DNA from: a bacterium
Lineage (GTDB): Bacteria > Bacteroidota > Ignavibacteria > SZUA-365
DNA length: 64,000 bases
Reading direction: 5' to 3'
Assembly (NCBI GenBank): GCA_020444325.1
Contig: JAHLLD010000003.1
Location: 21,572-85,571 of the forward strand
The notes beneath the pieces are model-generated. The model saw only the letters and a program-made list of their open reading frames with translations. It searched no databases and was not told the DNA's origin. Numbering within the stretch: the first letter of the stretch is position 1; each line of letters opens with the position of its first letter. A program made the translations under genes and the position numbers. Below, piece after piece: positions 23,644 through 57,507 of the stretch.

Positions 23644-23646
23644 CGG

Positions 23647-25503: not shown

Positions 25504-25532
25504 GCGTTCATGCCGGATCGATAGGGAAATAT

Positions 25533-26783: not shown

Positions 26784-26849
26784 CGGATTGATGGAGCGGC
26801 ACAGCTGCATATCCTCTGGAGTGTCGATATGGAGACCACTGCGGCGCAT

Positions 26850-27281: not shown

Positions 27282-27288
27282 GAACGTG

Positions 27289-28512: not shown

Positions 28513-28515
28513 GTA

Positions 28516-42829: not shown

Positions 42830-45800
42830 TTCGAACTCCCTTTCATCGCAGCATGCAGCGGAAGAACTGCAGCACAATCTCGAGCAGCGTGACATCGAAG
42901 CCAGGAGTGAAGCGCTGGAGCCGGGGTATTCCTGCATCGTACAGGCGCCGGCGGGATCGGGAAAAACCGAGCTTCTGATACAGCGCTTCCTCGTCCTTCT
43001 TGCCGCCGTCGACGCGCCGGAAGAAATCATTGCCATCACATTCACGCGCAAGGCATCGGCAGAAATGCGCGTGCGCATCATGCTGGCGCTGGCAGAGGCC
43101 GAGTCGGGCGCGGAAGTGGAGGGACATGCCGCAGTCACACGTACGCTGGCCGAACGTGTGCTCGCGAGGGATGCGGAACGAAAATGGCACCTGCGGGATC
43201 AACCCTCGCGTCTGCGTATCATGACAATCGACGCACTCAATGGCTGGATCGTGCGGCAGATGCCCTGGCTCTCCGGCATGGGAGGAGTACCGGCGATCGC
43301 AGACGACGCGATGGAACTGTACCGCGAGGCCGTGCGGCGCAGCATGCTCGACGATGTGCACGATGTCGAACGACGTGCGCACATCACGCGTCTGCTCGAA
43401 CATCTCGATAACAGGTATGGGACGATAGAGTCGCTGCTCGCACAGATGCTTGCGATCCGGGAGCAGTGGATGGATCTCGTCAGTGAGGAGGTGGAAATTC
43501 CCCGGGAAGCACGGAGCATCATTGAACGGTCGCTGACCAGCATTGTGACGGCACAGCTGCAAAAGCTATGCGCCCTGCTTCCGGAGGAGGAGCGCCGGGA
43601 AATTGCCGCACTCGGACAGCATGCCGCGCGGCAGCTTGAGGCGAGAGAGGACAGGAACGCCGGCGCGATGGCGGGATTTCTGAGCGGACCCACTGAACTC
43701 AATGAAACACCGGAATCGCTTGCCTCCTGGCAGGCAGCGGCGCAACTGCTGTTGACTGGAAGCGACACATTGCGGAGTCCGCGGGGCATCAATCGCACCC
43801 TGGGCTTTGAACGGGACGATACAGAAAAGCCGCGCATGCTGGCGCTTGTCGGACGGTTGGAAGGACAGGATGAATGCATCGCTCTGCTGCAGGATATCAG
43901 GCGTCTGCCCTCACCGCGTTTTACCGATGCGCAGTGGGACATTCTCTCATCGATACTCGAAGTGCTGCGCTATTGCGTCGGCGAACTGCAGTCTCTGTTC
44001 ACGCAGCGTGGCATGGTTGATCATGCGGAAGTCGCGGCATCCGCGTTGCGCGCCCTGGGCAGCGAGCTCGATCCGACGGATCTCGCCATGATGCTCGAAT
44101 ATCGCATTCAGCATATTCTTGTAGACGAATTCCAGGATACGTCTGCCGGACAGTACCGGCTGCTCAGCCTGCTTACCACCGGCTGGATGCCGGACGATGG
44201 GCATTCGCTGTTCCTTGTCGGTGATCCGATGCAATCGATTTATCGCTTCCGGGAAGCTGAAGTCGGCCTGTTTCTCAGTATCTGGGAAGATGCACGTATC
44301 GGGTCGGTTCCACTGCGAACGCTGCGGCTGTACAGGAATTTCCGCTCGCAGGCGGGTATCGTGCAGTGGGTGAACGAGGTGTTCGCACAGGTCATGCCTG
44401 CGCGCAGTGATCCGGCCTCAGGCGCTGTGACGTATGTGCCCTCCGCCCCCGCAAAGCCCGAGAACGGCGAGGCAGTGCGCTTCATGCCAGTCTACAGTGG
44501 TGATCGTGCGGATGAAGCTGCAGGTATTGTTTCCCTGCTGCGTGAACTCGGACATGGGCGCAGCGAAGTTACTGCCGAAGAAACAGCAATACTTGTCCGC
44601 AGTCGATCACATCTCGCGTATGTCATTCCCGCGCTTCGCGAGGCGGGCATTGCCTTCCAGGCCGTGGATATCGAGGCTCTGGGCGCGCATCCTGCGGTGC
44701 AGGACATTCTCGCACTGACACGTGCCTTGCTGCATATGGCAGACAGCACTGCCTGGCTGGCCGTGCTGCGTGCGCCGTTTTGCGGATTGCAGCTTTCCGA
44801 CCTTCACGCGCTCACTGCGTTGCGTGGAGAGCGAACGGTACTCGATGCCATACACGATGCGATAGTGAAAGAGGAGTACTCGGAGGATGCGGGGATTCGG
44901 CTGCGTCGCATCATGCCGGTGTTGGATGAGGCCATGGGTGAAGCGGGTCGCCGTCCCCTGCGGCTCCTTGTGGAACGCTGCTGGATCGGACTCGGCGGAC
45001 CAGCATGCGTAGATGCGCAGGGCTTCGATGCTGTGGCGTCATATTTCGATATGCTCGAGATGCTGGTGCCCGGAGCGAATCTCGACAATCTTCGAGAACT
45101 CCATGAAGGAATCGAAAAGCTTTTTGCACCGCCGGATCAGGGGGATGCCCTGAGGCTGCAGGTGATGACCATTCATCGGGCAAAGGGATTGCAGTTCGAT
45201 CATGTGATCATTCCCCGTCTCGACGGGACGCCGCCTGTTCGTGAGGAGCGCCTGATGATCTGGATGGACGATCCGGGTGCGAAGGGAAGTGGCTTCATCA
45301 TCGCTCCGTTGCGGGAACGCGGTACCGAAAAGGAAGCAACCTATGCGTATGTGCAGCGTCGTCTGGCGGAAAAGGAAGAGCATGAGTACCAGCGGCTGTT
45401 GTACGTTGCCGTCACCCGTGCCCGCAGGCGTCTGTACCTGTCCGCCACACTGCGCATGAAGGAGGATGACCAGCAGGGGTTTGTGTTGCAGAAACCTGCT
45501 CGCAATTCCTTCCTTTCCGCGATATGGCCAGCGGTCGAGGATGAGGCGCAGCGGCAGAGTGCAGCCTGGCTTACCTCCGCACAGGAGGAGGATGTGATAT
45601 CCCGTCCTGAGATTCGACTGCGTCGCCTGCGTGATGGATGGGAACCTCCGGCACTGCCGCCTCCGCTGCCTGTACGCGCATCCATCGATGTGGAAGACGT
45701 GTCCCACCCTGAAACAAGTGAACTGCCCTGGCATGCGGGCGAAGAGGCGAGACTGCGGGGAACTGCGGTGCATCGTGTTCTTGCGTGGATCGGTGCGCAC

Positions 45801-46247
45801 GGTCTCGCCGCGTGGGAAGAGAAAAGTACCGACGAACAAGTATCAACGGTGACGCGCGTCCTTGAGCATGGCGGCAGTGCGGGCACAGGTTTGACACGTG
45901 CTGTCATCGACGCGGTGCAGGCGGTAACCGGGGAAGAGATGGGTCGATGGCTGCTCGCAGCGCATCCGGAGGCGCGGAGTGAGTGGGCGCTTACGGTGCA
46001 TCATGCGGGGAGAAACGAGCGTGTGATCATCGACAGGACTTTTGTGGATGAAGAGGGGACGCGCTGGATTGTGGATTTCAAATCCGCGGTGCACGAGGGG
46101 GCAGACCTCGAGGGTTTCCTTGACGCACAATTGCGCATGCATCGCGCGCAGTTGCAGCGGTACGGAGAAATATTGCGCGCATTCGATGCGAGGCCGCAGC
46201 GGCTGCTCGTGTATTTCCCGATGTATCGAACGTGGAGAGAGCTGTAG
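42822..46247 (+). CDS. AddA/RecB-like UvrD-family helicase-nuclease
   Basis: Start MSDSNSLS overlaps the upstream stop by 8 bp. Walker A APAGSGKT, helicase motifs LVDEFQDTS, FLVGDPMQSIYRFR, MTIHRAKGLQFD, VAVTRARRRLYLS. C-terminal RecB-type nuclease (IVDFKS). Confidence 0.8.
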   Translation: MSDSNSLSSQHAAEELQHNLEQRDIEARSEALEPGYSCIVQAPAGSGKTELLIQRFLVLLAAVDAPEEIIAITFTRKASAEMRVRIMLALAEAESGAEVEGHAAVTRTLAERVLARDAERKWHLRDQPSRLRIMTIDALNGWIVRQMPWLSGMGGVPAIADDAMELYREAVRRSMLDDVHDVERRAHITRLLEHLDNRYGTIESLLAQMLAIREQWMDLVSEEVEIPREARSIIERSLTSIVTAQLQKLCALLPEEERREIAALGQHAARQLEAREDRNAGAMAGFLSGPTELNETPESLASWQAAAQLLLTGSDTLRSPRGINRTLGFERDDTEKPRMLALVGRLEGQDECIALLQDIRRLPSPRFTDAQWDILSSILEVLRYCVGELQSLFTQRGMVDHAEVAASALRALGSELDPTDLAMMLEYRIQHILVDEFQDTSAGQYRLLSLLTTGWMPDDGHSLFLVGDPMQSIYRFREAEVGLFLSIWEDARIGSVPLRTLRLYRNFRSQAGIVQWVNEVFAQVMPARSDPASGAVTYVPSAPAKPENGEAVRFMPVYSGDRADEAAGIVSLLRELGHGRSEVTAEETAILVRSRSHLAYVIPALREAGIAFQAVDIEALGAHPAVQDILALTRALLHMADSTAWLAVLRAPFCGLQLSDLHALTALRGERTVLDAIHDAIVKEEYSEDAGIRLRRIMPVLDEAMGEAGRRPLRLLVERCWIGLGGPACVDAQGFDAVASYFDMLEMLVPGANLDNLRELHEGIEKLFAPPDQGDALRLQVMTIHRAKGLQFDHVIIPRLDGTPPVREERLMIWMDDPGAKGSGFIIAPLRERGTEKEATYAYVQRRLAEKEEHEYQRLLYVAVTRARRRLYLSATLRMKEDDQQGFVLQKPARNSFLSAIWPAVEDEAQRQSAAWLTSAQEEDVISRPEIRLRRLRDGWEPPALPPPLPVRASIDVEDVSHPETSELPWHAGEEARLRGTAVHRVLAWIGAHGLAAWEEKSTDEQVSTVTRVLEHGGSAGTGLTRAVIDAVQAVTGEEMGRWLLAAHPEARSEWALTVHHAGRNERVIIDRTFVDEEGTRWIVDFKSAVHEGADLEGFLDAQLRMHRAQLQRYGEILRAFDARPQRLLVYFPMYRTWREL

Positions 46248-46260
46248 GGTGGAAAAAACA

Positions 46261-46285
46261 ACCCCTGTCACCGGGAGGGACAGGG
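46261..46285. terminator. Bidirectional rho-independent terminator between convergent addA-like and tonB genes
   Basis: CCCCTGTC-loop-GACAGGGG stem preceded by GAAAAAACAA. Confidence 0.45.
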
Positions 46286-46315
46286 GCTCATGGGGAAGGA
46301 AACGTTTCGTTTCAC

Positions 46316-47167
46316 CTATTTGAGTTTGAAACTGAATACCGCCGTGCCGACCTGGTCGGCCTGTTTGCTGCTTTCGGGAAGGACGTTGAATTTCCATGTG
46401 CGCATCGCGGCGAGCGCGGCGCGTTCGTAGCGGGGGTCGCCCTTCTGTATGACGGTCATGCCGTACATGCTGCCGTCGGGTCGCACACGGAAGCGCACAG
46501 CAACCTGCACCTCGCGCGTCGCTCCCGGAGGGAAATCGGGAAGCACACCGCTGATACGGTTCCGCGATACACCGCCGTCCCACCGGATATCTGCGGAGCT
46601 GTGGGGGGTTGCGCTGAGCGAGCCAGGGTCGGAGGTGATGGCGGAATGATCGCCGGTGCCCGCGCCGCTGACATTGTCAGAAGACTGTACCGATGTGCTC
46701 AACCCCTGTTCACGTGATTCCTGGCGGGTGAAATCACCGGTGTGCATCGACGTACTGCGGTCCTGTTTTCCTCCGCCGTAATCCATGAAATCCACCGCGT
46801 CCTCGGTCCCACGCAGTTCTCGCGGAGCAGCCGGCGTTGACGGGGCGGCACGCTGCGCGCCGCGATCCCTTGCCGTGGATTCCGTACTCGGTGCCTGCCG
46901 GGCGGCAGACTGCTCGATGCTTGTCGTTCCGCTCCGGCGGGGTGAAGACGAACGCTGCGCCGTGGTTGTGGTCTGGACTCTGGGACGCGATTCCAGCCGT
47001 GGCGGTGGTGTCGGCAGACGAACCGGGGTGACGAAGGTCAGCTCGATTTCTTCCGGGAGCCTGCTGATATTCGGGAAAGCTGCCCAGAACACCATGATCA
47101 GCATGAGCAGGATGTGAAGGACGAGAGAAACGCCGAATCCTTTGACATCATCACTGTTGAGTGTCAT
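46316..47167 (-). CDS. tonB: TonB-family energy transducer
   Basis: 283 aa. N-terminal TM, long Pro/Ser/Thr-rich spacer, C-terminal TonB domain (VQVAVRFRVRPDGSMYGMTVIQKGDPRYERAALAAMRTWKF). Confidence 0.75.
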   Translation of the reverse strand: MTLNSDDVKGFGVSLVLHILLMLIMVFWAAFPNISRLPEEIELTFVTPVRLPTPPPRLESRPRVQTTTTAQRSSSPRRSGTTSIEQSAARQAPSTESTARDRGAQRAAPSTPAAPRELRGTEDAVDFMDYGGGKQDRSTSMHTGDFTRQESREQGLSTSVQSSDNVSGAGTGDHSAITSDPGSLSATPHSSADIRWDGGVSRNRISGVLPDFPPGATREVQVAVRFRVRPDGSMYGMTVIQKGDPRYERAALAAMRTWKFNVLPESSKQADQVGTAVFSFKLK

Positions 47168-47576
47168 GATCTTCTTTCATCCTGGTGGAAATAAAAAATC
47201 GTGTTGCGCCGATGCCTTTCGCTTCGTCCATCACGAACACGGCGCGGTCAAGGGGAACGTCGCGGTCACTCGAGAGCACGATGACCTGTTTTTCGGGATC
47301 CTTCAGCTTCTCTTCCAGTGCACCCCGAAACTGTTCGGGAGCAATTTCCTCGTTGTTCAAAAAGAGGCGTCCATCATTGAGCAATGCGACCACGATCTGT
47401 TCCTGCTCAGATGCGGTGGAATTCTTTGCTTCCGGGAGGGTCACCTTGATCCCTTCCGTGATGATGAAGGAAGAGGTGAGAAGGAAGAAAATGAGAAGCA
47501 GCAGGACGATATCCGTCAGCGATGAGTAGCTGAAAATACTCAGCGGCTTGTTGTCCTGATTGAGATGGATTTTCAT
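47151..47576 (-). CDS. exbD: ExbD/TolR biopolymer transport protein
   Basis: 141 aa, single N-terminal TM (LLLLIFFLLTSSFI), typical ExbD profile. Confidence 0.8.
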   Translation of the reverse strand: MKIHLNQDNKPLSIFSYSSLTDIVLLLLIFFLLTSSFIITEGIKVTLPEAKNSTASEQEQIVVALLNDGRLFLNNEEIAPEQFRGALEEKLKDPEKQVIVLSSDRDVPLDRAVFVMDEAKGIGATRFFISTRMKEDHDTQQ

Positions 47577-48253
47577 GACTGGCTGCTCCGTGCCTGCTGA
47601 CGGGCCGCCTGTGCCTTCTTCGCGGCTGCGAGCGCCTTGCGCTGCTCACTCTGCGCGATGTCAAGGAAGTCGTTGCAGCTGCTCTCGGTTTCCGCAACGA
47701 AGTGGCTCACGCGATTGACAAGGTAGTTGTACATGAAGTAGGCAGGGATGCCGACGATGAGTCCGAACGCGGTGGTCAACAGCGCTTCCCAGATGCCGCT
47801 TGCCAGCAGCTGGGGATTGACCACACCTTCGTTGACCTCGATGACCCGGAAGGCGGAAATCATACCCGTCACCGTGCCGAGGAAACCCAGCAGCGGCGTG
47901 ATGCCGGCAATGGAAGCCAGCAGGCCGAGTCCCCGCTCCAGTTTGAACACCTCCATGCGCGCAGCGGCTTCCACGGCATCCTTCACATCCTGATGCGTGC
48001 CTTTCATTTTCAGCAGTCCCGCCCGCAGGATGTTCGACAGTGGTGAAGTGGCTTCACTGCACATCGTCAGTGCCGCGGCCATGTCACCCTTGCTCATTAC
48101 GGAGCGAATCTGAAGGATGAATTTTCCGCCGTCGACTTTGACACGTGAGAGCGTAATCAGCTTCTGCACGATCAGCGTCACGCCGAGCAGCGATGCGGCC
48201 AGGATGATCCACATGATAATGCCGCCTTTGAGAAAGAGATCGAATACAGTCAT
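47573..48253 (-). CDS. exbB: ExbB/TolQ/MotA-family proton channel
   Basis: 226 aa, 3 TM helices, conserved C-terminal half (GLLGTVTGMISAF...AGIWEALLTTAFGLIVGIPAYFMYN). Confidence 0.85.
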   Translation of the reverse strand: MTVFDLFLKGGIIMWIILAASLLGVTLIVQKLITLSRVKVDGGKFILQIRSVMSKGDMAAALTMCSEATSPLSNILRAGLLKMKGTHQDVKDAVEAAARMEVFKLERGLGLLASIAGITPLLGFLGTVTGMISAFRVIEVNEGVVNPQLLASGIWEALLTTAFGLIVGIPAYFMYNYLVNRVSHFVAETESSCNDFLDIAQSEQRKALAAAKKAQAARQQARSSQS

Positions 48254-48300: not shown

Positions 48301-49122
48301 CTATGCGCAGGGGAGGCGCTCTTCACTCCACGCCTGTCCGCTGCCGCTGCCCGGAACCACCGGGCGCTCCTCCTCACCGAAAAACATGCTGAATACAATC
48401 ACCAGCATGATCACCGTCAGCACCAGCGCAACCACCACAAGTGGCCGCCTGCTTCGCTCCTTCGGAGGATGATAGAGCTGATCCCGGTTCCTGTAAAAAA
48501 CCTCGTTATCCTCCTCTTCAGCCTCGCCCTTCCGGCTTCGTCCCTCCGGAACTACGCCGGGACAAGCGCTCTCGATTTCGATTTCGCTCTCGAATTCGCC
48601 TTCGCTCTCGATTTCGCCTTCGCCCTCGATTTCGATTTCGCTCTCGAATTCGCCTTCGCTCTCGATTTCGCCTTCGCTCTCGAATTCGCCTTCGCTCTCG
48701 ATTTCGATTTCGCCCTCGAATTCGCTCTCGCCCTCGAACTCGCTCTCGCCCTCGTATTCCATTCGGGGGCTAAATAAGCTCTGCACTTCATCAACGACGG
48801 CTGCAACATCGATCATTTCATGCGCACCACCGTGCTGCACGTTTTCAAGCGATGCGGCTGGAATGAATTCGAGTTCCTGTTCATTGACGGATGCGTGTGC
48901 GTGAATGAGTACGGGATGTACCGCTTCGTATTTCACATTCTGCAGCGTGCCATTGTCCTGCAGCACCGGTGTCCATTCCCCGATTCCGTCGAGGCGAAGC
49001 GGATCGCCGGTACGAAGGGCAGATTTTGCCGCATCGAAGAAGGCATGCAGAAATACCTGTGCGCTGTGCTCCGGGATGCCGAGCCTGGTCGCGAGTCGCG
49101 CTGTCAGTTCATCACGCTTCAC
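48301..49122 (-). CDS. HU/IHF-like N-terminal domain protein with an acidic E-x-E tripeptide repeat linker and a C-terminal TM helix
   Basis: 273 aa. N-terminus MKRDELTARLATRLGIPEHSAQVFLHAFFDAAKSALRTGDPLRLDGIGEW follows the HU pattern (M.k.EL...lA...gl.k..a...vda.fd.i..aL..Gd.v.L.G.G.F). Residues ~120-185 are EGESEFEGESEF...EIEIES repeats. C-terminal TM PLVVVALVLTVIMLVIVFSMFFG. Confidence 0.45.
   Translation of the reverse strand: MKRDELTARLATRLGIPEHSAQVFLHAFFDAAKSALRTGDPLRLDGIGEWTPVLQDNGTLQNVKYEAVHPVLIHAHASVNEQELEFIPAASLENVQHGGAHEMIDVAAVVDEVQSLFSPRMEYEGESEFEGESEFEGEIEIESEGEFESEGEIESEGEFESEIEIEGEGEIESEGEFESEIEIESACPGVVPEGRSRKGEAEEEDNEVFYRNRDQLYHPPKERSRRPLVVVALVLTVIMLVIVFSMFFGEEERPVVPGSGSGQAWSEERLPCA
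48568..48765. repeat. About 200 bp of tandem 9-bp (3-codon) repeats inside the HU-like gene
   Basis: Units CTCGATTTC / GCCTTCGCT / CTCGAATTC recur about 20 times and encode (E-[IF]-E-[SG]-E-[GF])n on the minus strand. This also produces several spurious overlapping ORFs in the six-frame track. Confidence 0.8.
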
Positions 49123-49343
49123 AATTCCTCCTCATCAGGTGGAAGGAGGGAGGTATGGGCACGGAAGCGCTCTTCCCCGGCCGACCGCAGCAGTGTCCCA
49201 AAGGTCATCAGCTCCACATCCTCATCGTGCTGACGGGCTTCACTGATGATTTCGAGAAGGGCATCGACATAAGACTGCACGACGGTGGAGTCCATTCCGA
49301 GTCGTGCAGCAGTGCGAATCGTTATGTCCTGCAATCCAGCCAT
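49119..49343 (-). CDS. Small HU/IHF-like domain protein
   Basis: 74 aa. ...LAGLQDITIRTAARLGMDSTVVQSYVDALLEIISEARQHDEDVELMTFGTL matches the HU N-terminal helix-turn-helix pattern. 1 bp after the upstream gene and 4 bp overlap with the downstream gene. Confidence 0.4.
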   Translation of the reverse strand: MAGLQDITIRTAARLGMDSTVVQSYVDALLEIISEARQHDEDVELMTFGTLLRSAGEERFRAHTSLLPPDEEEL

Positions 49344-49344
49344 A

Positions 49345-51075
49345 TCAGAAGCGCAGCACCGCTCCTCCCATCATGAAGAAGGGGCGCTCACGATAGTCAT
49401 CCCATTGTTCGTAAGACTGATCAAGCAGATTGTCGACGCGCAGGAACAGGGAGGCATAATCCGTCAGACGGTATTCACATTCGAAGCCGAGGATCAGCCA
49501 GGCGGGAATGTCCGCGCCGTCAGAATTCACCTGTCCTCCGGCGAGCTGCGTGCTGGCCTGCAGGGTCAGGTCAAAGGGAAAGCTGTGCTGCAGCATGAGG
49601 CGAAGCTCATACGAGGGCATGTACGGGATGCTGCCGTCGACGACATCGTTATGCGTAGAACGGAACAGCGCGCTTCCCTGGATGCGCGTTGCCGTACTGA
49701 AGGCGTGAGCAAGATCACCACGCAGATCCAGCATGCTGCTGTTTCCATCATAGTGCAGTGCCCATTGCTGCCGCACGGGATCAGGCAGAAGGGAAAAGCG
49801 CGCGATGGACGATGAGGAACTGTAAGATGCGATGATACGTGCGGAACTCCGGTGCCTGTTGTCCCATTCCGCCGCGGCTTCGAAGCGCAGGGGGATATCA
49901 GTGTGCCGGATTTCGCTGGCAAGCATCATGTAGGGATTGAGATGCATGAAATCCGCGAAGCTGCGCTCCTGCACTTCGGGTGCATACCCGGCATGCAGCT
50001 GCCAGTCGTCCGTCAGCCTGTGGCGGAAAAGTATGGTAGGATACAGCCGGAGCTGTGTTGCCTGCATGCTGCCGCGAAACAGGTAGAGGCGTGCACGGAC
50101 GTCAAGGCTGTTTTTTACATCGAAACGGTGAATGGTCGCGGCGCCTGCGTGCATGAAAAATGGCCGCGTGCTGCCTTCCGCTGCCTCGGAAAGATCATTG
50201 ACGTGAATGCCTCCGCTCGTCTCGAGACGATAGCCGGGAACGCGCAGTGTGGCCGTGCCATCGAGTCCGATACGGTTTTCCAGGCTGCTGTAGTCCTCGA
50301 GGTCCATGGTATCGCGAACGGCGAGCTGCTCATCGACGCCGGTATGACGGAAGAACAGCGAGAGGGAGTGGTCGAGAATGGTATTCCGGCGTGAGATCAG
50401 GTCGGCCTGCCAGTCGAGCTGTGTCAGGCTGCGACGAAAATCCAGTGCGGGGGCATCCTGCTGCAGCTTGTCCGCATACAACCCGTATTCATGAACCCGC
50501 GCGTGAAACGCACCCTGGATACGTGAAGAAGCGAGCAGCGGCGTAAGGTTGCGGGGGAGATAGGTACCCGCATCGATATCGAAATTGAAACGGCTGTAAT
50601 CGGCCCGTGGTACATGTCCATCACTGCGTTCATACAGCACATGCGAAGCGAGGTCGCCAAGCTGATAGCGATCGGCATACCATGCCTGCAGATGGGGGGT
50701 CGACCAGGTGCCAATCCCGGCTTTGAGGCGGAACACCTCTTCACTGCCGGTCAGGGCGCGTTTGCGCAGGGGCATGCGTGTCGGCTCGGTACCGAAGAAC
50801 CGCTGCTCCCGTATCCCGCGTCCCGCGCGTGCCGTAAAGCCGGCATTGTCGGGCCAGGAAAGTGTTGTTTTCCTGTCCTCGGTAAAGCTGATCATATCGC
50901 TGCCGGTGATGACATATTCCGGGAGGTCGAGCGCGGGCAGCACATCGGATGCCTGCCTGGTTTCGGGTTCGAAATTACGCACCGGGGGACGCGGTTTGTC
51001 CTGTGCCTGCGCAGTTGCAGGGAGCAGGCAGGAAAGAATGGCTGGGAGAAAGAGCAGACGGAGATATTTCATCAT
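49345..51075 (-). CDS. TonB-dependent-receptor-like outer-membrane beta-barrel (short, TonB-box-like N-terminus)
   Basis: 576 aa. Signal MMKYLRLLFLPAILSCLLPATAQA, TonB-box-like LPEYVITGS. TBDR-type C-terminus ...DNLLDQSYEQ...GGAVLRF. Too short for a full plug plus 22-strand barrel. Confidence 0.55.
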   Translation of the reverse strand: MMKYLRLLFLPAILSCLLPATAQAQDKPRPPVRNFEPETRQASDVLPALDLPEYVITGSDMISFTEDRKTTLSWPDNAGFTARAGRGIREQRFFGTEPTRMPLRKRALTGSEEVFRLKAGIGTWSTPHLQAWYADRYQLGDLASHVLYERSDGHVPRADYSRFNFDIDAGTYLPRNLTPLLASSRIQGAFHARVHEYGLYADKLQQDAPALDFRRSLTQLDWQADLISRRNTILDHSLSLFFRHTGVDEQLAVRDTMDLEDYSSLENRIGLDGTATLRVPGYRLETSGGIHVNDLSEAAEGSTRPFFMHAGAATIHRFDVKNSLDVRARLYLFRGSMQATQLRLYPTILFRHRLTDDWQLHAGYAPEVQERSFADFMHLNPYMMLASEIRHTDIPLRFEAAAEWDNRHRSSARIIASYSSSSSIARFSLLPDPVRQQWALHYDGNSSMLDLRGDLAHAFSTATRIQGSALFRSTHNDVVDGSIPYMPSYELRLMLQHSFPFDLTLQASTQLAGGQVNSDGADIPAWLILGFECEYRLTDYASLFLRVDNLLDQSYEQWDDYRERPFFMMGGAVLRF

Positions 51076-54074
51076 TTGAGTATCTCCAGTCTTGTTTTTG
51101 CTTCCGCGGCCTCTTCGGACCCCGCGTATTTGGTCAGCACGTCGTTGTAATATTTCATCGCCTCGCTGGTTTGTCCTTCAGCTTCGCTGATGCGTGCGAG
51201 CTGCAGCAGTGCGCGCGCATTCCAGAGGGAAGCATTGTCGCGGTAGACATAGCCGACTCGCAGCAGGGCTTCGCGGGCTTCACCGTAGCGTTTTGCATGC
51301 GCCAGCAGCTGGCCGCTGCGGTACTGTGCTTCGGCACCCACGGCATCGACACGCGTACTCGAGATCTGGCGCAATTCCTTGAGTGCCGTCTCCAGGTCAC
51401 CTTCCTCGGCGGTGAGCACCGCGAGTTCTATCGTGGCGAGGGCAGCGTAGCGGTCTTCAGGCTGCGCCTTGCGGGCGGCCTCAAAATCCTTCCGTGCTGC
51501 AGCGAATTGCTTGTCCGATTTGTACACGAGCCCGCGTCGGTAATAGACTTCTGCCCGATGTCCCCGGGCAGCGGGGTCGTTGAGCAGTTCCTCGCAGATG
51601 ACACGGGCCTTGTTGCGGTCCTGTTGCGCCATGGCGGTTTCGGCAAGCGCGAACTTGGCGCGGACGGCAAGCGGACTCTTTGGATTGAGACTGATTGCTT
51701 CGCGCAGTGTTTTTTCTGCGTCATCGAGATCGTCGTTCTCCCTGAACGCTTCACCAAGAAGCAGGTGTGCTTCCTGGAGCAGGGGGGAGGAAGGATGAGA
51801 TTTGATGAAGCCCTGGAGAGCGGGGATACTGCGTTCAGGTTCCCCCTGTGCTGCCAGGTCGCGCAGATTTGCGAATGCGACTTCGTCGGCGGCACCGCTG
51901 CGGGGATTGGACTGCAGCCATTGCTCCTTCACCGAAGCAGCCTCGGCTTCCCGACCCTGCATGCGCAGCGCCTGGGCGAGTCCATCAAGCGCATCGCTCA
52001 CCTTCGGAGAATCCGGATGCCTGGTGAGCACGCTGCGGTAGCTTTCCTCCGCTGCCTCGTATTCGCCTTTATTGTAGTAGCAATCGGCTATGCTGTAGCG
52101 TGCCTGGGGAAGCAGCGGACTCTGTGGCCAGTCACGGATCAGCTTCTCAAACTCCATGATGGCAACATCATAGTCCTTGCTCTGGAAATACATCCACGCG
52201 AGTGAGAACTGTGCCTTGTCACCGTATTCCGATTCCGGGTAACGCGCCAGCAGTCCTTTCAGCGTCGAAATCGCGGCGGGCGTATTCCCGAGCCGATGCT
52301 CACACGAAGCGAGCTGCAGAAGGGCATAGGCGGAAAGGGGATTCGCGGAATACATCCGCGAGGTGTAGCGGTAGGTTTTCGCCGCGTCGGAGAAATGCTT
52401 CTGGGCGTACTGCGCGTCGCCGAGACGGACATTGGCGTCGACGTCATGCGTACCCGCACGGAATTCCGTGGTCAGGCGGTGAAATGCCTTTTCCGCATCA
52501 GCAAACTGCTGTGCACGGAAATGTGCCCATCCGAGTCCGTACAACGCGTCCTGCGTCACGTCAGGATTCTGCGTTTCAGCGAGCGCCTGGTTGTACACGA
52601 TGACGGCGTCGTCGAATTCATCGGTCTTGAAGTAGCTTTCCCCCAGCCAGAGCAGCGCTTCCGTCTTCCGTCCATCAGCCGGGTATTTCTGCAGAAAGTT
52701 TTTGAGGACGACAATGGCGTCCGGGTATTTCTTCGCCTGATACAGCGCGAAGCCCTGGCGGAACAGTGCCTTGGAGAGAATCTCCTGCGAGGCGTCTTTC
52801 ACCGCCGCGGCCGCCGCGTACGCTGGTGCGGCAGCGGCCGGATCGTGCAGCGCAAGCCAGCATTCGCCTTTCATGAACCAGGCGTCGGCGATGACGTCGC
52901 TCTCCGGGAAATTTTCGGTCACCGAGTTGAAATGCTGAAGCGCGGTCTGCAGGGCTTTTTCATTGAAGGCCGCCATACCGAGTTCGAAATGCGCGTTGTC
53001 GGCGTAACTGCCCGAGGGCTTTGTGGCGATCATTTCGCGGAACACGCTGCGCGCGGCTTCCAGGTTGCCGTTGAGGCGCAGCGCCATACCCTTGCGGAAC
53101 ATGGCCGCCTCGGCGATCTCCCCGTTGCGCTGTGCGAGTTCGTCGAACGTCGCGATGGCTTCGGAGTATTTCTTCTGTTCAATCTGCGTCCAACCCAGCG
53201 AATACTGCACCTGCTGTGCACGTTTGTGATCGGGATACCCTGTGAGGAAGTCCCTGTACAGTGCTTCCGCTTCCGCATACTGTCCGAGTTTGTACCGGGC
53301 TTCGCCGCGGAGATACAGGCGCTCAGCAGCATTTTCCGGATCTGGACTGTCGGTCAGGGATGTGAGCCAGGAAATGGTTTCTTCATACTTGCCGAGCTGA
53401 TAGAGGCAGGCTCCCTTGCGGGTGTACACGCTCGAGAGGAGGGCGCTGGAAGGAAAAACCTTCAGGAAATCTTCGTAATTGTCGAGTGCCTGCTGGTATT
53501 CACCCTGCTTCTCGAGTACGAAGCCGATGGAAAAATATGCGTAATCGCGTATGCTGCCTTCGGGGTAGTGTTCGTAGGCGATGCGGTAATAGCGCAGGGC
53601 CATCGGATAATTGCCATCCTTGAAGGCCGCTTCACCGGCCCAGTAAGCCGATTCGTGCGCCAGGTTACCCTCGGGCCAGCGCTTGACCACCGATGCGAAG
53701 GTCTCGTGTGCCTTGCTGAACTGACCCTGGCGGTAATACACCTCACCTTCACGGAAACCCGCATCATCTGCCAGCTTGCTGTCGGGATACCGTTCCCGGA
53801 ACTGTGCAAACGCAATGGCAGCATCAGGCAGATTCGCATTCTGATACAGCGATTCAGCACAGTAATATGTGGCATCCGGACGTAACGCGCTTTCCGGATA
53901 ATCATCCAGAAACTGTCGGAATTTTTCGAGGGAAAGCTGGTAGTTTTTGTCCTTGAACAGTCCCAGGGCGAAGGCGTAATCCTGCTCCTCCTGGAGCGAT
54001 TTTACCTGCGCAGGTGCGGAAAAAGCCAGAACCAATACCAGGAGAAGTGAGAAGAGGACGGTTGGTCGCACCAT
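51072..54074 (-). CDS. Secreted tetratricopeptide-repeat (TPR) protein
   Basis: 1000 aa. Signal MVRPTVLFSLLLVLVLAFSAPAQ, then more than 20 TPR-like 34-aa units (W-LG-Y...A...F pattern). Stop overlaps the start of the downstream outer-membrane gene. Confidence 0.85.
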   Translation of the reverse strand: MVRPTVLFSLLLVLVLAFSAPAQVKSLQEEQDYAFALGLFKDKNYQLSLEKFRQFLDDYPESALRPDATYYCAESLYQNANLPDAAIAFAQFRERYPDSKLADDAGFREGEVYYRQGQFSKAHETFASVVKRWPEGNLAHESAYWAGEAAFKDGNYPMALRYYRIAYEHYPEGSIRDYAYFSIGFVLEKQGEYQQALDNYEDFLKVFPSSALLSSVYTRKGACLYQLGKYEETISWLTSLTDSPDPENAAERLYLRGEARYKLGQYAEAEALYRDFLTGYPDHKRAQQVQYSLGWTQIEQKKYSEAIATFDELAQRNGEIAEAAMFRKGMALRLNGNLEAARSVFREMIATKPSGSYADNAHFELGMAAFNEKALQTALQHFNSVTENFPESDVIADAWFMKGECWLALHDPAAAAPAYAAAAAVKDASQEILSKALFRQGFALYQAKKYPDAIVVLKNFLQKYPADGRKTEALLWLGESYFKTDEFDDAVIVYNQALAETQNPDVTQDALYGLGWAHFRAQQFADAEKAFHRLTTEFRAGTHDVDANVRLGDAQYAQKHFSDAAKTYRYTSRMYSANPLSAYALLQLASCEHRLGNTPAAISTLKGLLARYPESEYGDKAQFSLAWMYFQSKDYDVAIMEFEKLIRDWPQSPLLPQARYSIADCYYNKGEYEAAEESYRSVLTRHPDSPKVSDALDGLAQALRMQGREAEAASVKEQWLQSNPRSGAADEVAFANLRDLAAQGEPERSIPALQGFIKSHPSSPLLQEAHLLLGEAFRENDDLDDAEKTLREAISLNPKSPLAVRAKFALAETAMAQQDRNKARVICEELLNDPAARGHRAEVYYRRGLVYKSDKQFAAARKDFEAARKAQPEDRYAALATIELAVLTAEEGDLETALKELRQISSTRVDAVGAEAQYRSGQLLAHAKRYGEAREALLRVGYVYRDNASLWNARALLQLARISEAEGQTSEAMKYYNDVLTKYAGSEEAAEAKTRLEILK

Positions 54075-54179
54075 GTGTAGCTCTTCTGTGGGTAAAATCG
54101 AACGACTTAAAGTGATACTATAGATAGTTCACTTAACTGTGACAAATTACGTTTTACGGGTCTGAGTGTCAAGGAAGCG

Positions 54180-54285
54180 GAACACGGACGAAACGATAGG
54201 GCGAATCAAGGGGAACACGGTCAAAACGGATAGGGCGAATCAAGGGGAACACGGATTTTCACGGATTAATACGGATTTTCACGGA
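54180..54285. repeat. Direct repeats in the 423-bp divergent intergenic region between the TPR operon and the RavA-like gene
   Basis: 25-bp perfect direct repeat ATAGGGCGAATCAAGGGGAACACGG (~54196-54220 and ~54230-54254) within about 34-bp units. 15-bp repeat ACGGATTTTCACGGA x2 (~54251-54265 and ~54271-54285). Further downstream CGCGCGAAGTCGCGCGAAGCGGG. Confidence 0.6.
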
Positions 54286-54497: not shown

Positions 54498-55805
54498 ATG
54501 AACGCAACCGCTACAACATTTTCTCCGGAGCAGGCGCTGGAAATGATACTGGAGGCCATTGAGCTGGTCAACAGGCGCATCATCAACCGCAGGGAGGTGA
54601 TTGATCAGATTTTCTCGGCCATGCTCATGCGGGAACATGCGCTCATTCAGAGTCGCACGGGGGCGGCGAAATCGCTGCTCGCGCAACAGATTTTCAGCAT
54701 GTTCGATGGTGCCAACGTGTTCATGGTGCAGGCATCGAAGGAGCAGCAGCCGGATACGTATTTTGGCGGACTCGATATAGAGGAGCTGAAAAAGGGTCGC
54801 ATCATGCACAATACCACCGATTCGCTGGTCGAGAGCGAGTTCGGCTTCATAGACGAGATTTTCGATGCGAACGACTATACGCTTCGCGCGCTGCTGACCA
54901 CGCTCAATGAGCGGGCGCTCATCCTCGGTGTGCAGCAGGTCCCTGCCCGCGTCCACAGCGTCATCGCCGCCACGAACTATCTGCGCGTCAGTGAGATCAC
55001 CGAAGCACTGCTTGATCGTTTCATTTTCAAGGCGTTGTTCATTCCGGCGAAGGAGCCGTACACGCAGTATCAGATCGCCCAGCGCTACCTGACGCACAAG
55101 GGAAAACCATCCACTCCCGAACAGCGTATTCCCTACGCAGTGCTCAACCGGACGGCAGACGTGATCAAGGGACTGGATGCCGAGTTCAGCATTCGTATTC
55201 CGCTCGAGGTCATTTTCTTTGCGAATTCCGTCGTCCGTTACTACGAAATGCAGAAAAACCGTCTGATCAAGGAGAATCCACAGCAGTATCCGCATGTGAA
55301 GGACTACTATATCTCTCCTCGTACGTATTCCCGGGCGATGGACATGCTGCGCGTTATCGCCTTCCTTCATGGACGCATGGAAGTGATCCCGGAGGACGTT
55401 GAGAAGCTCTGGTATCTTTACACTGTCGTGGGCATTCACGAGGAACGCGACCTCTTCAACAAATGCTATACCAGTCTGTTCAAGCAACTTTCATCATCCC
55501 GCGCCTTCGAACAGATACGGCACATGCTCGAATTCCAGGAATTCATCGAATATCTGAAGACGCATCCCGAACTGCTGAAACGTCCCATCACGGAGATCGA
55601 AGGACAGCCGCTGCGCCGCACACTCACCGAGTGGGCGAAAGAAGCCCTGGGTATCACGAATGCCTCGGTCGAACACAACCGCAGGCTCCTCGAAGGCTAT
55701 TTCAAGACCTTCGAACCTCTCAATGAAGAGATTGCCGACTTCCTCCGTATCCAGCAGCGCGACATCCACGAGCTGTTCCACCCAGGCGTGCATATCTATA
55801 GCTAA
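54498..55805 (+). CDS. RavA/MoxR-like AAA+ ATPase with a divergent Walker A
   Basis: 435 aa. Region SAMLMREHALIQSRTGAAKSLLAQQIF aligns with RavA ...[22 protein letters not shown] (the GPPG is lost, AKS kept). Walker B FGFIDEIFDA, sensor-1 VIAATN. C-terminal ~170 aa alpha-helical extension. Confidence 0.65.
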   Translation: MNATATTFSPEQALEMILEAIELVNRRIINRREVIDQIFSAMLMREHALIQSRTGAAKSLLAQQIFSMFDGANVFMVQASKEQQPDTYFGGLDIEELKKGRIMHNTTDSLVESEFGFIDEIFDANDYTLRALLTTLNERALILGVQQVPARVHSVIAATNYLRVSEITEALLDRFIFKALFIPAKEPYTQYQIAQRYLTHKGKPSTPEQRIPYAVLNRTADVIKGLDAEFSIRIPLEVIFFANSVVRYYEMQKNRLIKENPQQYPHVKDYYISPRTYSRAMDMLRVIAFLHGRMEVIPEDVEKLWYLYTVVGIHEERDLFNKCYTSLFKQLSSSRAFEQIRHMLEFQEFIEYLKTHPELLKRPITEIEGQPLRRTLTEWAKEALGITNASVEHNRRLLEGYFKTFEPLNEEIADFLRIQQRDIHELFHPGVHIYS

Positions 55806-55849
55806 CGCCGGTTGGCAGAGTTACCTGCCTGTACACCGTGATGCGAATA

Positions 55850-55992
55850 GAAAAATGGAACCATCGAAAAATGGAAACATGCCCTGGATGTCATAGTTCA
55901 ATTTTTCCATTTTTCAATCCTTCCATGCTTCACAAATCCCGGGATGCCTGCACAACCCCTATGTGTAATCTGTAATCTGAAATCTGACATCT
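55850..55992. promoter_or_regulatory. Inverted GAAAAATGGAA repeats and a 7-bp tandem repeat just upstream of the vWA gene
   Basis: GAAAAATGGAA x2 (55850-55860, 55866-55876) facing TTCCATTTTT(C) copies at ~55905-55926, forming a long imperfect hairpin. TGTAATC TGTAATC TGAAATC TGACATC (55963-55992) ends 4 nt before the ATG at 55996. Confidence 0.5.
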
Positions 55993-55995
55993 GCC

Positions 55996-57507
55996 ATGCC
56001 GGCGTACGAGCACTTTTTCGACGTAATGGAGGATCTGGGATTCTTCGAGCATATCTATGAGGATTTGCCCGAGGATTTCTCGGCGGTGTTTGAGATTGCG
56101 CGGGTACTGGAGGATGAAAAACATGAATTGACGCAGCGCCTGATGCCGGTGCTGGAATTGCAGAGCAGTGGGGGAAGACGCAATCCGGAGGAGAAGGGGA
56201 GGGATCCACAGGTGTATGTTGACGACAGGGCGGAGTACGAGGCGGGCCTTATCCGTTCTCCCCAGCATTTGCCGCGTATCTACAATTATCAATGGCTGCT
56301 GCCGGATGACGTGTTTTTCCAGCGTCTCGCGAAGAAAGAGCTGTGGGTGCCGTACGCGCAGGAGCCGACGTATTACGCGGTGGACCCGGAATCGGATGAG
56401 TATCGTCCCGACAGTCGCAAGCAGAAACTCTACGTCCTTCTCGATACCTCCAGCTCCATGGCGATGAAAAACCGCATCAATCTCGCCAAGGCCATCGTGT
56501 ACCATTTCCTCAAGCAGAATCTGCGTGAACTGGGTTACATCAACCTCCGCACCTTCGACACGAAAATCGGAGAACTGCATGAAGCGAAAGACACGGCCAG
56601 CTTCCAGGCCCTCCTCACCTATGTCATGCGTCTGCACACGCTGGGCAATGGCACGGCGATGGCGCGCGCGATACGGCAGGCGGTAGAGGATATCAATGCA
56701 CTGCCGCAGCTTGCAGGGACTGAAATTCTCATCATTACTGACGGCGCCTGCGCGCTCAATGAAGATGAAATCCGTGCGATGCTGGGTGAGAGGATTGTTA
56801 TCAACACCATCAAAATCGGTCGTGCACAGCTCATCGCTTCCAAGAGCTATATTCACGACCAGATTTTTGAGGAGGACACCGGACAGCATCGCGTGATTGC
56901 GCGCCTGCAGAAACGCGAACGGGAACTCAAGCATCAGTACGACTACGCTGAGAGTCCACACATCAAACGCCGGTATGAAGAATCCCTCCGCGCCATCCGG
57001 CAGGAAATCGAACGCCAGGTCAATGCCATGACCGAGGAAATTGTCGTCGGTTACGGTCACGAACTCGAACGGCTCTCGTCGCTGTATCTCCAGATAGAAG
57101 ACATCGACCTGCCCGGCATGTTCGATTTCAGGGAGGAGCAATACGACGAGATACATCGGCTTTTCGAGCAGATCGCCCGCGAACTCGACCTGCGCTGTTC
57201 GCTTGACCAGCTTCGTAAACTGGCCCTGATCATCGACCATCTCAGCGTCCTCATCAAAAACACCGAGGATGTGCAGCTGCGCACCAGGCTCGAGGTGCTG
57301 CAGAAGGAGGTCACCCAGCGGCTGACATCCTGTATCGAAACCGAAATGGAGCAAAGCGGGGGAGGACTGTTCCGCTCTCTCGGCAATGCCGATCGGCATG
57401 ATCTGCAGTTCCTGCTTTCGTCCGCATCCACCCTCCACGTCAACCTGTGGCGTGCCTTTATCTGGAAGCTTCTCAGCGGTTTCCGCCGCATCACGGGACG
57501 CGACTGA
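55996..57507 (+). CDS. ViaA-like von Willebrand factor A (vWA) domain protein with a C-terminal coiled coil
   Basis: 503 aa. MIDAS motif DTSSSM (LYVLLDTSSSMAMKNRINLAKAIVYHFL), then ...ILIITDGAC, typical of vWA. Downstream of the RavA-like ATPase. Confidence 0.7.
   Translation: MPAYEHFFDVMEDLGFFEHIYEDLPEDFSAVFEIARVLEDEKHELTQRLMPVLELQSSGGRRNPEEKGRDPQVYVDDRAEYEAGLIRSPQHLPRIYNYQWLLPDDVFFQRLAKKELWVPYAQEPTYYAVDPESDEYRPDSRKQKLYVLLDTSSSMAMKNRINLAKAIVYHFLKQNLRELGYINLRTFDTKIGELHEAKDTASFQALLTYVMRLHTLGNGTAMARAIRQAVEDINALPQLAGTEILIITDGACALNEDEIRAMLGERIVINTIKIGRAQLIASKSYIHDQIFEEDTGQHRVIARLQKRERELKHQYDYAESPHIKRRYEESLRAIRQEIERQVNAMTEEIVVGYGHELERLSSLYLQIEDIDLPGMFDFREEQYDEIHRLFEQIARELDLRCSLDQLRKLALIIDHLSVLIKNTEDVQLRTRLEVLQKEVTQRLTSCIETEMEQSGGGLFRSLGNADRHDLQFLLSSASTLHVNLWRAFIWKLLSGFRRITGRD

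Follow-up and report, generated by a model that had tools for sequence, protein, structure and literature searches.

Organization of the operon

Within the window analysed here, a 64,000-nucleotide stretch of contig JAHLLD010000003.1 (GenBank assembly GCA_020444325.1) from a bacterium of the Ignavibacteria, seven genes encode a tetratricopeptide repeat (TPR) protein, an outer-membrane barrel protein, a small and a large HU-like protein, and the ExbB, ExbD and TonB components of an energy-transduction system (Table 1). The original prediction had described seven co-directional, tightly packed genes in this order, and the open reading frame (ORF) listing places all seven on the minus strand where they had been claimed. 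Read directly from the sequence, the junctions comprise ATGA overlaps between the TPR and barrel genes (51075-51072) and between exbB and exbD (47576-47573), a 17-base overlap of exbD and tonB, and, as predicted for the interval between 49343 and 49345, a single base (49344) separating the barrel gene from that of the 74-residue protein. A third ATGA overlap claimed at 49119-49122 proved to be a GTGA, with the gene for the 273-residue protein starting at GTG. A gap of 47 bp lies between this gene and exbB.

The range 48301-54074 first assigned to the operon covers only four of the seven genes, as the unit extends from a promoter and leader upstream of the TPR gene to a terminator-like hairpin past tonB. 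A scan for terminators with loops of 3-8 nt revealed no terminator-like site within the operon on the minus strand; the hairpin past tonB has a 9-nt loop and lies outside the range of that scan. As far as sequence can indicate, the locus is a single transcription unit from the leader at 54075-54172 to the hairpin at 46253-46286.

Table 1. Features of the operon in window coordinates; genes are from the ORF listing.
Feature	Position	Strand	Description
Promoter and 5' leader	54075-54172	minus	TTGACA (54172-54167), 17-nt spacer, TAATTT (54149-54144), then GTTAAGTGAACTATCTATAGTATCACTTTAAGTC
TPR protein gene	51072-54074	minus	1000 aa
Barrel (outer-membrane protein) gene	49345-51075	minus	576 aa
TonB-box-like motif LPEYVITG	50902-50925	minus	barrel residues 51-58
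Small HU-like protein gene	49119-49343	minus	74 aa
Large HU-like protein gene	48301-49122	minus	273 aa
Acidic E-x-E linker	48567-48759	minus	18-bp tandem repeat x 10.7; Tandem Repeats Finder (TRF) score 239, 86% matches
Juxtamembrane motif FYRNRDQLYHPP (FxRNRDQLYHPP)	48463-48498	minus	residues 209-220 of the 273-aa protein
Single transmembrane helix, hydrophobic stretch LVVVALVLTVIMLVIVFSMFF	48379-48441	minus	residues 228-248 of the 273-aa protein
ExbB gene	47573-48253	minus	226 aa
ExbD gene	47151-47576	minus	141 aa
TonB gene	46316-47167	minus	283 aa
Terminator-like hairpin	46253-46286	minus	CCCCTGTC / GACAGGGG then TTGTTTTTT (T-run); directly past the tonB stop codon, read from sequence

An acidic HU-like pair with a membrane anchor

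Profile searches uphold the HU-like assignment of the 74- and 273-residue proteins. Both exceed the Pfam Bac_DNA_binding cut-off of 22.4 bits (23.8 and 27.3 bits, respectively), in alignments that are partial and span profile positions 8-58 and 1-64 of 90, and the same family is matched by 19/19 members of the 74-residue family and 17/17 members of the 273-residue family. The 74-residue family profile also matched the HU structure 5lvt in the PDB (E = 1.4e-8, positions 1-56), and about half of the members of both families matched HU-HIG. The second Pfam family proposed for checking the pair gave no support, with no match of the window's proteins to HU-CCDC81_bac_1 or HU-CCDC81_bac_2 at E <= 1 or E <= 10; among relatives, HU-CCDC81_bac_2 was matched weakly, by 2/19 and 2/17 proteins.

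The 74-residue protein consists of the alpha1-alpha2-beta core of HU and carries no DNA-binding arm. An invariant ELMTFG in its family corresponds to HU beta1 and the GFG turn, and the chain ends ~20 residues later. Its isoelectric point (pI) is 4.36 with a net charge of -9, and 19/19 family members have a pI of 4.1-5.0. In the 273-residue protein, an HU core (residue 1 to ~70, with an invariant QVFLHA.FD) is followed by a conserved segment (RHFIPA..AL and VD...V.EV; alignment A1), the acidic linker, the juxtamembrane motif, the transmembrane helix and a periplasmic tail. Its N-terminal domain has a pI of 5.04 and a net charge of -9, within a family range of pI 4.5-6.5. Homologues of this protein are few and come from metagenome-assembled genomes labelled Bacteroidota or Ignavibacteria.

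Comparison with classical HU and IHF underscores how far the pair has diverged. An alpha1-alpha2-beta core, dimer-type packing, a score above the Pfam cut-off and a profile match to HU structures are shared. In contrast, the window's pair has stub arms without a basic clasp and a pI of 4.4-5.0; one of its subunits is tethered to the membrane, and its genes belong to an envelope operon. Because both proteins are acidic (pI 4.4 and 5.0) and have stub arms, they are unlikely to bind DNA. The earlier suggestion of a membrane-tethered nucleoid-associated or regulatory factor is likewise unlikely to apply here, given this acidity, a linker of net charge -30 and the lack of DNA-clasping arms.

The acidic E-x-E linker and the C-terminal membrane anchor of the original prediction are both present, the former as a tandem repeat and the latter as a hydrophobic helix. 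Linkers of relatives range from 61 to 216 residues and are hypervariable in sequence, yet all are strongly acidic, with net charges of -16 to -48; other lineages have expanded other repeats, such as MLEQP in P0010 and DSETFDVD in L012. Matches of the 273-residue protein to Bactofilin, NESP55 and ClfA/B were rejected as low-complexity artefacts because they fall on the E-x-E repeat, lie below cut-offs and are absent where linkers differ. In the juxtamembrane motif (F.RNRDQLY.PP in A1), residues F209, R211, N212, R213, Q215, L216, Y217, P219 and P220 are invariant, and the motif is retained in the related loci L051 (FEQNRQHLFHPP), L052 (RKKREQFYSPP) and L054. KERSRRP lies before the transmembrane helix and GEEE after it, and this change from a basic to an acidic flank predicts an N-in/C-out topology by the positive-inside rule. 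Beyond it, a periplasmic tail of ~25 residues is of the EPRELPGS type, with a conserved PG and an invariant P257.

The exact sequences of the 273-residue and TPR proteins are absent from a collection of 15 billion proteins in which the ExbB, TonB, barrel and 74-residue proteins of the same NCBI contig are present; alternative start codons may have been chosen in the public annotation, or the gene for the 273-residue protein may be missing from it.

The barrel and its TPR partner

The barrel protein, which is named 'hypothetical protein' in NCBI as is the 74-residue protein, comprises a signal peptide, a conserved N-terminal extension of ~85 residues predicted to be disordered, and the barrel itself. 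An AlphaFold model based on 28 homologues (pLDDT 79.8) folds residues 115-576 into a barrel of ~22 DSSP strands, with residues 21-110 below a pLDDT of 50 despite many invariant positions. A Foldseek search of the PDB returned FhuE, BtuB, FepA and OprC as best matches (E ~1e-16, TM-score ~0.58), and all 50 listed best matches are 22-strand TonB-dependent transporters (TBDTs). The protein remains below TBDT family cut-offs (11.2 versus 27 bits for TonB_dep_Rec_b-barrel; 21.9 versus 223.5 bits for TIGR01783) and has no assigned Pfam family, its faint Pfam similarity being confined to the last strands of TBDT barrels. No match to Pfam Plug (PF07715) was obtained, and the signal peptide is separated from the barrel by only ~85 residues. 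Thus, the original description of a short TonB-dependent-receptor-like outer-membrane protein is correct with respect to fold and TonB-box-like motif, but the protein is not merely short; it is without a plug domain.

The motif in question, LPEYVITG, lies in the disordered extension; it resembles a TonB box and is predicted to contact TonB. Residues L51, P52, E53, Y54, I56 and G58 are invariant in an alignment of barrel homologues (A2), and LPE(F/Y)xITG-type motifs recur in barrel relatives recovered by a search that was not baited with the motif. A profile search of 1.84 billion representatives afforded 125 barrel clusters at a threshold of E <= 1e-30, a number that rises to 788 at E <= 1e-10; almost all measure 540-610 residues. 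Hallmarks of the N-terminus in these relatives are a signal peptide, Q(D/E)KxxPP and LPE(F/Y)xITG, and W or F is the last residue of most sequences. Downstream of the barrel, every locus that extends far enough has a TonB-family gene.

The predicted 1000-residue TPR protein was confirmed by a match to TIGR02795 (tol_pal_ybgF) of 436.9 bits summed over 11 stretches (NCBIfam cut-off 90.1), corresponding to ~11 TPR units of the CpoB/YbgF and BamD types. It also scored 264 bits against the BamD model of NCBIfam and matched many TPR families of Pfam. The protein has a signal peptide and no lipobox cysteine. In nearly all related loci the barrel gene is immediately preceded by a TPR gene of similar size (~1000 residues), and in three proteins of ~1200 residues (P0151, P0170 and P0209) some 650-740 residues of TPR repeats are fused N-terminally to a barrel, which argues that the TPR protein and barrel act as one unit. 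In these fusions the barrel-homologous part begins at about profile position 90-113, and later in P0209, such that the TonB-box region appears to have been lost or exchanged for other sequence.

The motor and transducer

The ExbB protein matches MotA_ExbB in Pfam (109 bits) and is named a MotA/TolQ/ExbB family protein in NCBI. Its best NCBIfam match is TolQ, at 105.7 bits (cut-off 221) versus 70.9 bits for the ExbB model, both below their cut-offs. Similarly, ExbD matches Pfam ExbD with 94.7 bits and has TolR as its best NCBIfam match, at 55.3 bits and below the cut-off of 127.3. The third protein, named energy transducer TonB in NCBI (MCB2204092.1), passes TonB_C (28.2 bits, cut-off 24.6) and tonB_Cterm (32.0 bits, cut-off 27.1), and its 37.4 bits against tolA_full fall below the cut-off of 59.45. 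Its transmembrane helix contains an S-x3-H motif (SLVLH) and is joined to the TonB_C domain by a Pro/Ser-rich linker.

At its C-terminus, ExbB bears a cytoplasmic tail (EQRKA..AAKKAQ.AR; 47573-47660) that is basic (net +3 to +6), probably helical and conserved in L001-L021. This tail is specific to the close clade of the window; neither L051 and L052 nor the SPOR-type clades described below have it.

A conserved module with a variable slot

All related loci of sufficient extent share the operon's gene order; they comprise 14 loci from species-representative genomes and L001, and also the metagenome loci L016-L021 and L049-L052. The full layout in the 14 genome loci and L001 includes MoxR/VWA genes on the opposite strand, then TPR, barrel, HU, HU, ExbB, ExbD and TonB, and finally a convergent gene for an AddA-like helicase. 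The HU-HU-exbB-exbD-tonB order is thus conserved in relatives, as the original prediction proposed should be examined, and its recurrence in all related loci places the association far beyond chance. Across the genome loci, identity is 31-58% for the HU genes, compared with 77-95% for ExbB. Even marine relatives with barrels of ~33% identity have the TPR gene, barrel, an HU75 gene and a long HU gene in the same order. Conserved synteny, translational coupling and natural fusions of the HU genes support the earlier idea of a non-canonical accessory to a TonB system.

To avoid circularity, metagenomes were searched for the contents of the slot between barrel and motor with the barrel, rather than the HU genes, as bait. 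Loci with distant barrels (21-26% identity) have a TPR gene of ~1000 residues before the barrel and one gene after it, followed by ExbB-ExbD-TonB or by TonB alone. This one gene encodes a protein of 210-250 residues with an MP(D/E)LNL N-terminus, a transmembrane helix, a P/E-rich linker and a SPOR domain (PF05036, 43-52 bits); a Pfam scan found no SPOR domain in the window's proteins. The SPOR-type slot proteins (L023-L047, L055 and L056) share an invariant cytoplasmic N-terminal MP(D/E)(L/I)NL, and a periplasmic juxtamembrane LNQxGVIxLWGKK is conserved; the two have the character of short linear motifs.

Other loci bear further combinations in the slot. L053 pairs a basic, full-length classical HU (91 bits, with a GRNPRTGE arm) with a 415-residue protein of HU-linker-transmembrane-linker-SPOR architecture. 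In L052, a 106-residue HU protein is followed by a protein with a weak HU domain, the juxtamembrane motif and a transmembrane helix, and then by ExbB-ExbD-TonB. Fused HU-HU proteins occupy the slot in L051, where the protein is complete with motif and transmembrane helix, and in L050, where it ends at the contig edge; L049 carries the same barrel (P0078) as these fused-HU loci, its slot ORF not being among those translated. Finally, L054 has lost the HU domain and kept the juxtamembrane motif and transmembrane helix. In every case the slot is filled by some one-pass membrane protein. A comparison of SPOR-type and HU-type slot proteins with hhalign detected no homology (only 10 transmembrane residues aligned, probability 4%), leaving a common origin of the two types unsupported.

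On the strength of this series, we describe the operon as a deep module of TPR protein, barrel, one-pass N-in adaptor, optional ExbBD and TonB, with an adaptor slot of which the window's HU pair is one derived state. By lineage, the slot content is a classical HU with an HU-transmembrane-SPOR protein, a SPOR protein alone, or a degenerate HU pair.

Promoter and leader

The segment upstream of the TPR gene is strikingly conserved: the promoter and leader, which past TAATTT reads GTTAAGTGA..CCATCTAGAGTATCACTTTAAGTC, have 35 invariant columns in 12 loci, among which HU protein identity is no more than ~35%. The element is found upstream of the TPR gene in L001-L021 and partly in L031-L047, and a CTTTAAG core is retained before the TPR gene even in SPOR-type loci with barrels of ~22% identity. 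Just downstream of the promoter the leader element is partly palindromic. A structured RNA was considered and rejected, as the leader has no Rfam match, no consensus RNA fold, no covariation and no significant folding energy (z = -0.64). These negative results make a DNA-level promoter or operator likelier, and the element may serve as an operator or bind a protein close to the promoter.

The divergent intergenic region between the TPR and MoxR genes holds lineage-specific repeats. Just upstream of the promoter, at 54175-54285, the window contains a 34-bp direct repeat of 2.4 copies (GTGTTCCCCTTGATTCGCCCTATC...) and a 10-bp repeat of 3.6 copies (CCGTGAAAAT), and L021 has another tandem repeat (CGATTCACGATTAA...) at the matching position.

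Fusions and the relationship to HU-CCDC81 proteins

Natural fusions of the 74- and 273-residue proteins occur in P0011, P0015, L012, L050 and L051, a classic sign that the two proteins associate, presumably as a heterodimer. The fusion protein P0011, a relative rather than the window's own pair, was modelled with AlphaFold and contains two alpha-alpha-beta-beta-beta(-alpha) domains (residues 1-65 and 86-165, pLDDT >90) with hairpin strands of 6-7 residues, a disordered linker and a transmembrane helix (377-401, pLDDT ~80) equivalent to that of the window's protein. The best Foldseek matches of P0011 in the PDB span both domains and are chains of doublet-microtubule inner proteins, 8snb_1K (E = 1.4e-4, TM-score 0.63), 9e2g_2N, 8v3l_A and 8g2z_0T, followed by single-chain IHF. 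From its description and length, together with a preprint (10.1101/2023.11.28.569001), 8v3l_A is probably Tetrahymena CCDC81B. By its best matches, the modelled fold of the fusion appears closest to the tandem HU domains of the eukaryotic CCDC81 type.

A bacteroidetes-chlorobi 'HU-CCDC81' group was predicted by Burroughs, Kaur, Zhang and Aravind in 2017 (PMC5499826). Its members have one or more HU domains, a disordered segment and a transmembrane helix, beyond which lies a SPOR or LysM domain or, in a small minority, a short conserved extension. The HU arms are truncated with few basic residues, evolution is fast, single-HU forms and a stand-alone HU together make up a two-gene operon, and two-HU forms arose by fusion. 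The authors proposed nucleoid-envelope tethering, or protein-protein roles for two-HU forms that possibly do not bind DNA. The text of PMC5499826 contains no mention of TonB, ExbB or Tol, and none of TPR.

The window's pair shares with this clade an N-terminal HU domain with a truncated, poorly basic arm, a disordered segment, a transmembrane helix, a small conserved extension, a stand-alone HU in a two-gene arrangement, natural two-HU fusions, fast evolution and a host of the bacteroidetes-chlorobi type. It differs in matching Bac_DNA_binding rather than the HU-CCDC81_bac models, in a stand-alone partner that is truncated and acidic rather than classical (classical only in L053), in lacking SPOR and LysM while carrying an extra conserved juxtamembrane motif, and in its embedding among TPR, barrel, ExbBD and TonB genes, which is absent from PMC5499826. 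We therefore read the pair as a derived member of a membrane-anchored 'bacterial HU-CCDC81-like' group. The original prediction had considered a membrane-anchored HU-like protein next to a small HU-like gene unexpected in a TonB operon. Since the pair fits the HU-CCDC81 architecture of PMC5499826, this part is not new; since that study never mentions TonB, ExbB or Tol, the operon context appears to be.

A proposed envelope machine

ExbB-ExbD complexes use proton flow to exert force on TonB/TolA-type proteins, which bind the disordered 'box' of an outer partner by strand addition, and SPOR domains bind septal peptidoglycan. The locus points to an undescribed cell-envelope machine rather than to DNA packaging. 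Our overall reading, which we hold at about even confidence, is that of a Tol-like envelope system, possibly tied to division, whose cytoplasmic adaptor would be the HU pair; we place more trust in the structural annotation, and less in the role in division, than in this reading as a whole.

As we envision it, the operon would encode a trans-envelope machine of the Ton/Tol type driven by the proton motive force, rather than an iron-uptake cassette. ExbB-ExbD would form the inner-membrane motor, and the TonB-family protein would span the periplasm and capture the LPEYVITG strand on the disordered N-terminal extension of the barrel, by analogy with TonB-TBDT and TolA-TolB, with the TPR protein as periplasmic scaffold of the barrel. 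The slot protein would be a one-pass, N-in inner-membrane adaptor between barrel and motor that positions or couples the motor. In relatives this adaptor carries a periplasmic SPOR domain, which would bind septal peptidoglycan, and in one lineage it comes with what would be a classical DNA-binding HU heterodimer. The adaptor of the window's lineage would have lost both SPOR and the DNA-clasping arms, leaving an acidic HU heterodimer, spacer, motif and transmembrane helix. The HU pair would then sit on the cytoplasmic face, held by the acidic spacer, and act via protein-protein contacts. The juxtamembrane motif and transmembrane helix may be the part that docks to the membrane complex, because both persist where the HU domain has been lost (L054). 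Overall, such a system would transmit force or tether between the membranes, probably at division. We infer the TonB-barrel contact, the heterodimer, the docking of adaptor on motor and the division role.

Several observations weigh against this reading. Ton and Tol are not separable by sequence, because the TolQ, TolR and TolA matches are below their cut-offs and TonB_C passes. No TolB or OmpA-like (Pal) domain was found in the seven operon proteins or among the flanking genes scanned. It is gene order that suggests contact between the HU pair and the motor. The basic tail of ExbB may be an electrostatic partner of the acidic linker or of the HU pair, a weak hint given an imperfect correlation: the tail is missing in L051 and L052, both of which have HU-type adaptors, and we accordingly dropped it as proof of co-evolution with the linker. 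With no detectable homology between them, the SPOR-type and HU-type slot proteins may do non-equivalent jobs. Finally, the N-terminal 90 residues of the barrel protein could be a small plug that AlphaFold failed to model.

Other explanations of the operon

A further-reaching reading, which we consider unlikely, is a widespread, undescribed trans-envelope machine of FCB (Bacteroidota/Ignavibacteria-like) bacteria, built of the TPR scaffold, the plug-less TonB-box barrel and an ExbBD-TonB motor, that replaces the Tol-Pal system missing from Bacteroidetes and in which the adaptor would have evolved from an HU dimer-transmembrane-SPOR tether between nucleoid and septum into a motor-associated, non-DNA-binding HU-fold heterodimer. 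The HU pair would couple a cytoplasmic partner (divisome- or nucleoid-associated) to outer-membrane constriction, and its HU module would be of the same kind as that later used by eukaryotes as CCDC81. Nutrient uptake would account for the TBDT-like fold of the barrel and its TonB-box-like motif. The 273-residue protein, one-pass and N-in with a cytoplasmic domain of DNA-binding fold, would then be a signalling arm resembling an anti-sigma factor or a membrane-tethered regulator (FecR/ToxR-like) that controls or releases an HU-fold DNA-binding regulator of the operon, for which the conserved, partly palindromic element below the promoter could be the operator. This explanation is quite unlikely in view of a barrel without plug or N-terminal signalling domain, HU domains that are arm-less and acidic, a periplasmic tail of only ~25 residues, and the same leader in SPOR-type loci that have no HU genes. 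Furthermore, no sigma factor, binding protein or ABC importer adjoins the operon, the synteny looks housekeeping, and a SPOR protein in the same slot is unsuited to a nutrient signal. Direct tethering of nucleoid to envelope, the first proposal of Burroughs et al., would have the HU heterodimer fix chromosomal DNA to the membrane during segregation, and the architecture does match the predicted bacterial HU-CCDC81 tethers. Also in its favour is L053, with a basic, full-length HU and an HU-transmembrane-SPOR protein in the slot, and it is only for this ancestral-looking locus that a nucleoid or regulatory role is plausible. In the clade of the window, the pI values of the 74-residue proteins and of the 273-residue N-domains, the linker charges, alignments that end at about profile position 60 of 90 and modelled hairpins of 6-7 residues per strand all argue against such a tether, as do the complete loss of HU domains in L054 and the suggestion in PMC5499826 that two-HU versions may not bind DNA; we regard it as improbable.

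An apparatus for secretion, polymer export or gliding, in which a TolQR/TonB-like motor energizes the barrel (compare BcsC, PgaA and PelB, or the Myxococcus Agl-Glt/Nfs systems), is improbable to the same degree. The TPR-barrel fusions do resemble the layout of BcsC and PgaA, and the TBDT Oar is reported as necessary for protein secretion (PMC6434023). The TPR matches to GltC, PorW and PorE that would favour this explanation are weak and far below cut-offs, the barrel resembles 22-strand TBDTs in all 50 listed best hits, SPOR and HU adaptors are not features of such systems, and no synthase, glycosyltransferase, adhesin or type IX secretion system gene adjoins the operon in the window or in related loci. 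That the HU-like genes are mere passengers, inserted by chance between two operons, could be argued from the 47-bp gap before exbB and from their faster evolution relative to their neighbours, yet rapid divergence is among the traits described for this HU clade (PMC5499826). Their position is kept in every related locus, even at ~33% barrel identity, their starts and stops overlap or are one base apart with no internal terminator, and the slot always holds a one-pass membrane protein. Chance adjacency thus appears effectively excluded by synteny, and we give the passenger explanation almost no weight.

Comparison with known envelope systems

The Tol-like reading preferred here calls for comparison with Tol-Pal itself. 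Common to both are a proton-motive-force motor of the same family, a TolA/TonB-type transducer, a TPR protein with CpoB-type units, arrangement in one operon and a predicted disordered box near the N-terminus of the outer partner that the transducer could grasp; moreover, the septal SPOR proteins of relatives echo the interaction of E. coli TolQ with the SPOR protein FtsN (PMC3831626). In contrast, the window has no TolB propeller and no Pal lipoprotein, its outer partner is an integral 22-strand barrel, its TPR protein is ~4 times the length of CpoB (the unit type matches and the architecture does not), and its motor proteins fall below the Tol equivalog cut-offs. The locus shares with Ton/TBDT systems ExbB, ExbD, TonB_C, a TonB-box-like motif and a barrel that has the 22-strand fold and ends in an aromatic residue. 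It differs from them in lacking a plug and ligand-uptake partners, in a one-to-one pairing of barrel and TonB within the operon, and in its additional TPR and HU/SPOR parts. The slot protein of relatives is similar to the SPOR proteins FtsN, DedD and DamX in being one-pass and N-in, with a short conserved cytoplasmic peptide (MPDLNL) and, at the C-terminus, a SPOR domain that follows a P/E-rich linker, whereas the protein of the window is mostly cytoplasmic, has no SPOR domain and ends in its ~25-residue periplasmic tail.

Literature on SPOR with ExbB/TonB operons, on Bacteroidota Tol-Pal and on plug-less TBDTs yielded no description of the module, and the family of plug-less TonB-box barrels, its TPR partner and the HU/SPOR slot are absent from Pfam, NCBIfam and the literature searched. 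The HU pair on its own is a variant of a computationally described clade, and its operon context appears to be new. A 2025 survey (PMC12204202) found no Tol-Pal locus in Bacteroidetes and expected other systems that stabilize the outer membrane. With its CpoB-type TPR units, SPOR adaptors, TolQRA-like motor and 788 barrel clusters, the module is a concrete candidate for this missing stabilizer. Bacterial HU-CCDC81-type proteins, the proposed source of eukaryotic CCDC81, previously had a prediction from domain architecture only and now gain a set of conserved operon partners, namely the motor and transducer, the barrel and the TPR scaffold. A natural TBDT-like barrel of 22 strands that has a TonB box and no plug would, in addition, be a new object for studying TonB force in the absence of unplugging. 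Lastly, the slot series would represent stepwise repurposing of a DNA-binding fold, through classical HU with HU-transmembrane-SPOR, SPOR only, an acidic arm-less HU pair, and motif plus transmembrane helix only.

Flanking genes

The flanks of the operon look housekeeping (AddAB-like, MoxR/VWA and ATP synthase genes), and among the flanking genes scanned there were no siderophore, sigma/anti-sigma or polysaccharide-synthase genes. Divergent from the operon, at 54498-57507 on the plus strand, are a bpMoxR-type AAA+ ATPase (PF20030, 97.8 bits) and a VWA protein, a pairing kept in all HU-type loci and not in SPOR-type loci. On the other side, an AddB-like PD-(D/E)XK nuclease (913 residues) and an AddA-like UvrD helicase (1166 residues) are encoded at 40088-46247 on the plus strand and converge on the tonB terminator, such that the hairpin at 46253-46286 could be shared and terminate both the AddAB-like unit and the operon. 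More distant are an efflux trio of the resistance-nodulation-division type (OEP, AcrB-type and HlyD-type; 30647-36263, minus strand) and, at 22288-30084, an adenylate/guanylate cyclase fused to a response regulator, a HAMP/CHASE8 histidine kinase and a MatE transporter, all of which are ordinary neighbours unrelated to the operon.

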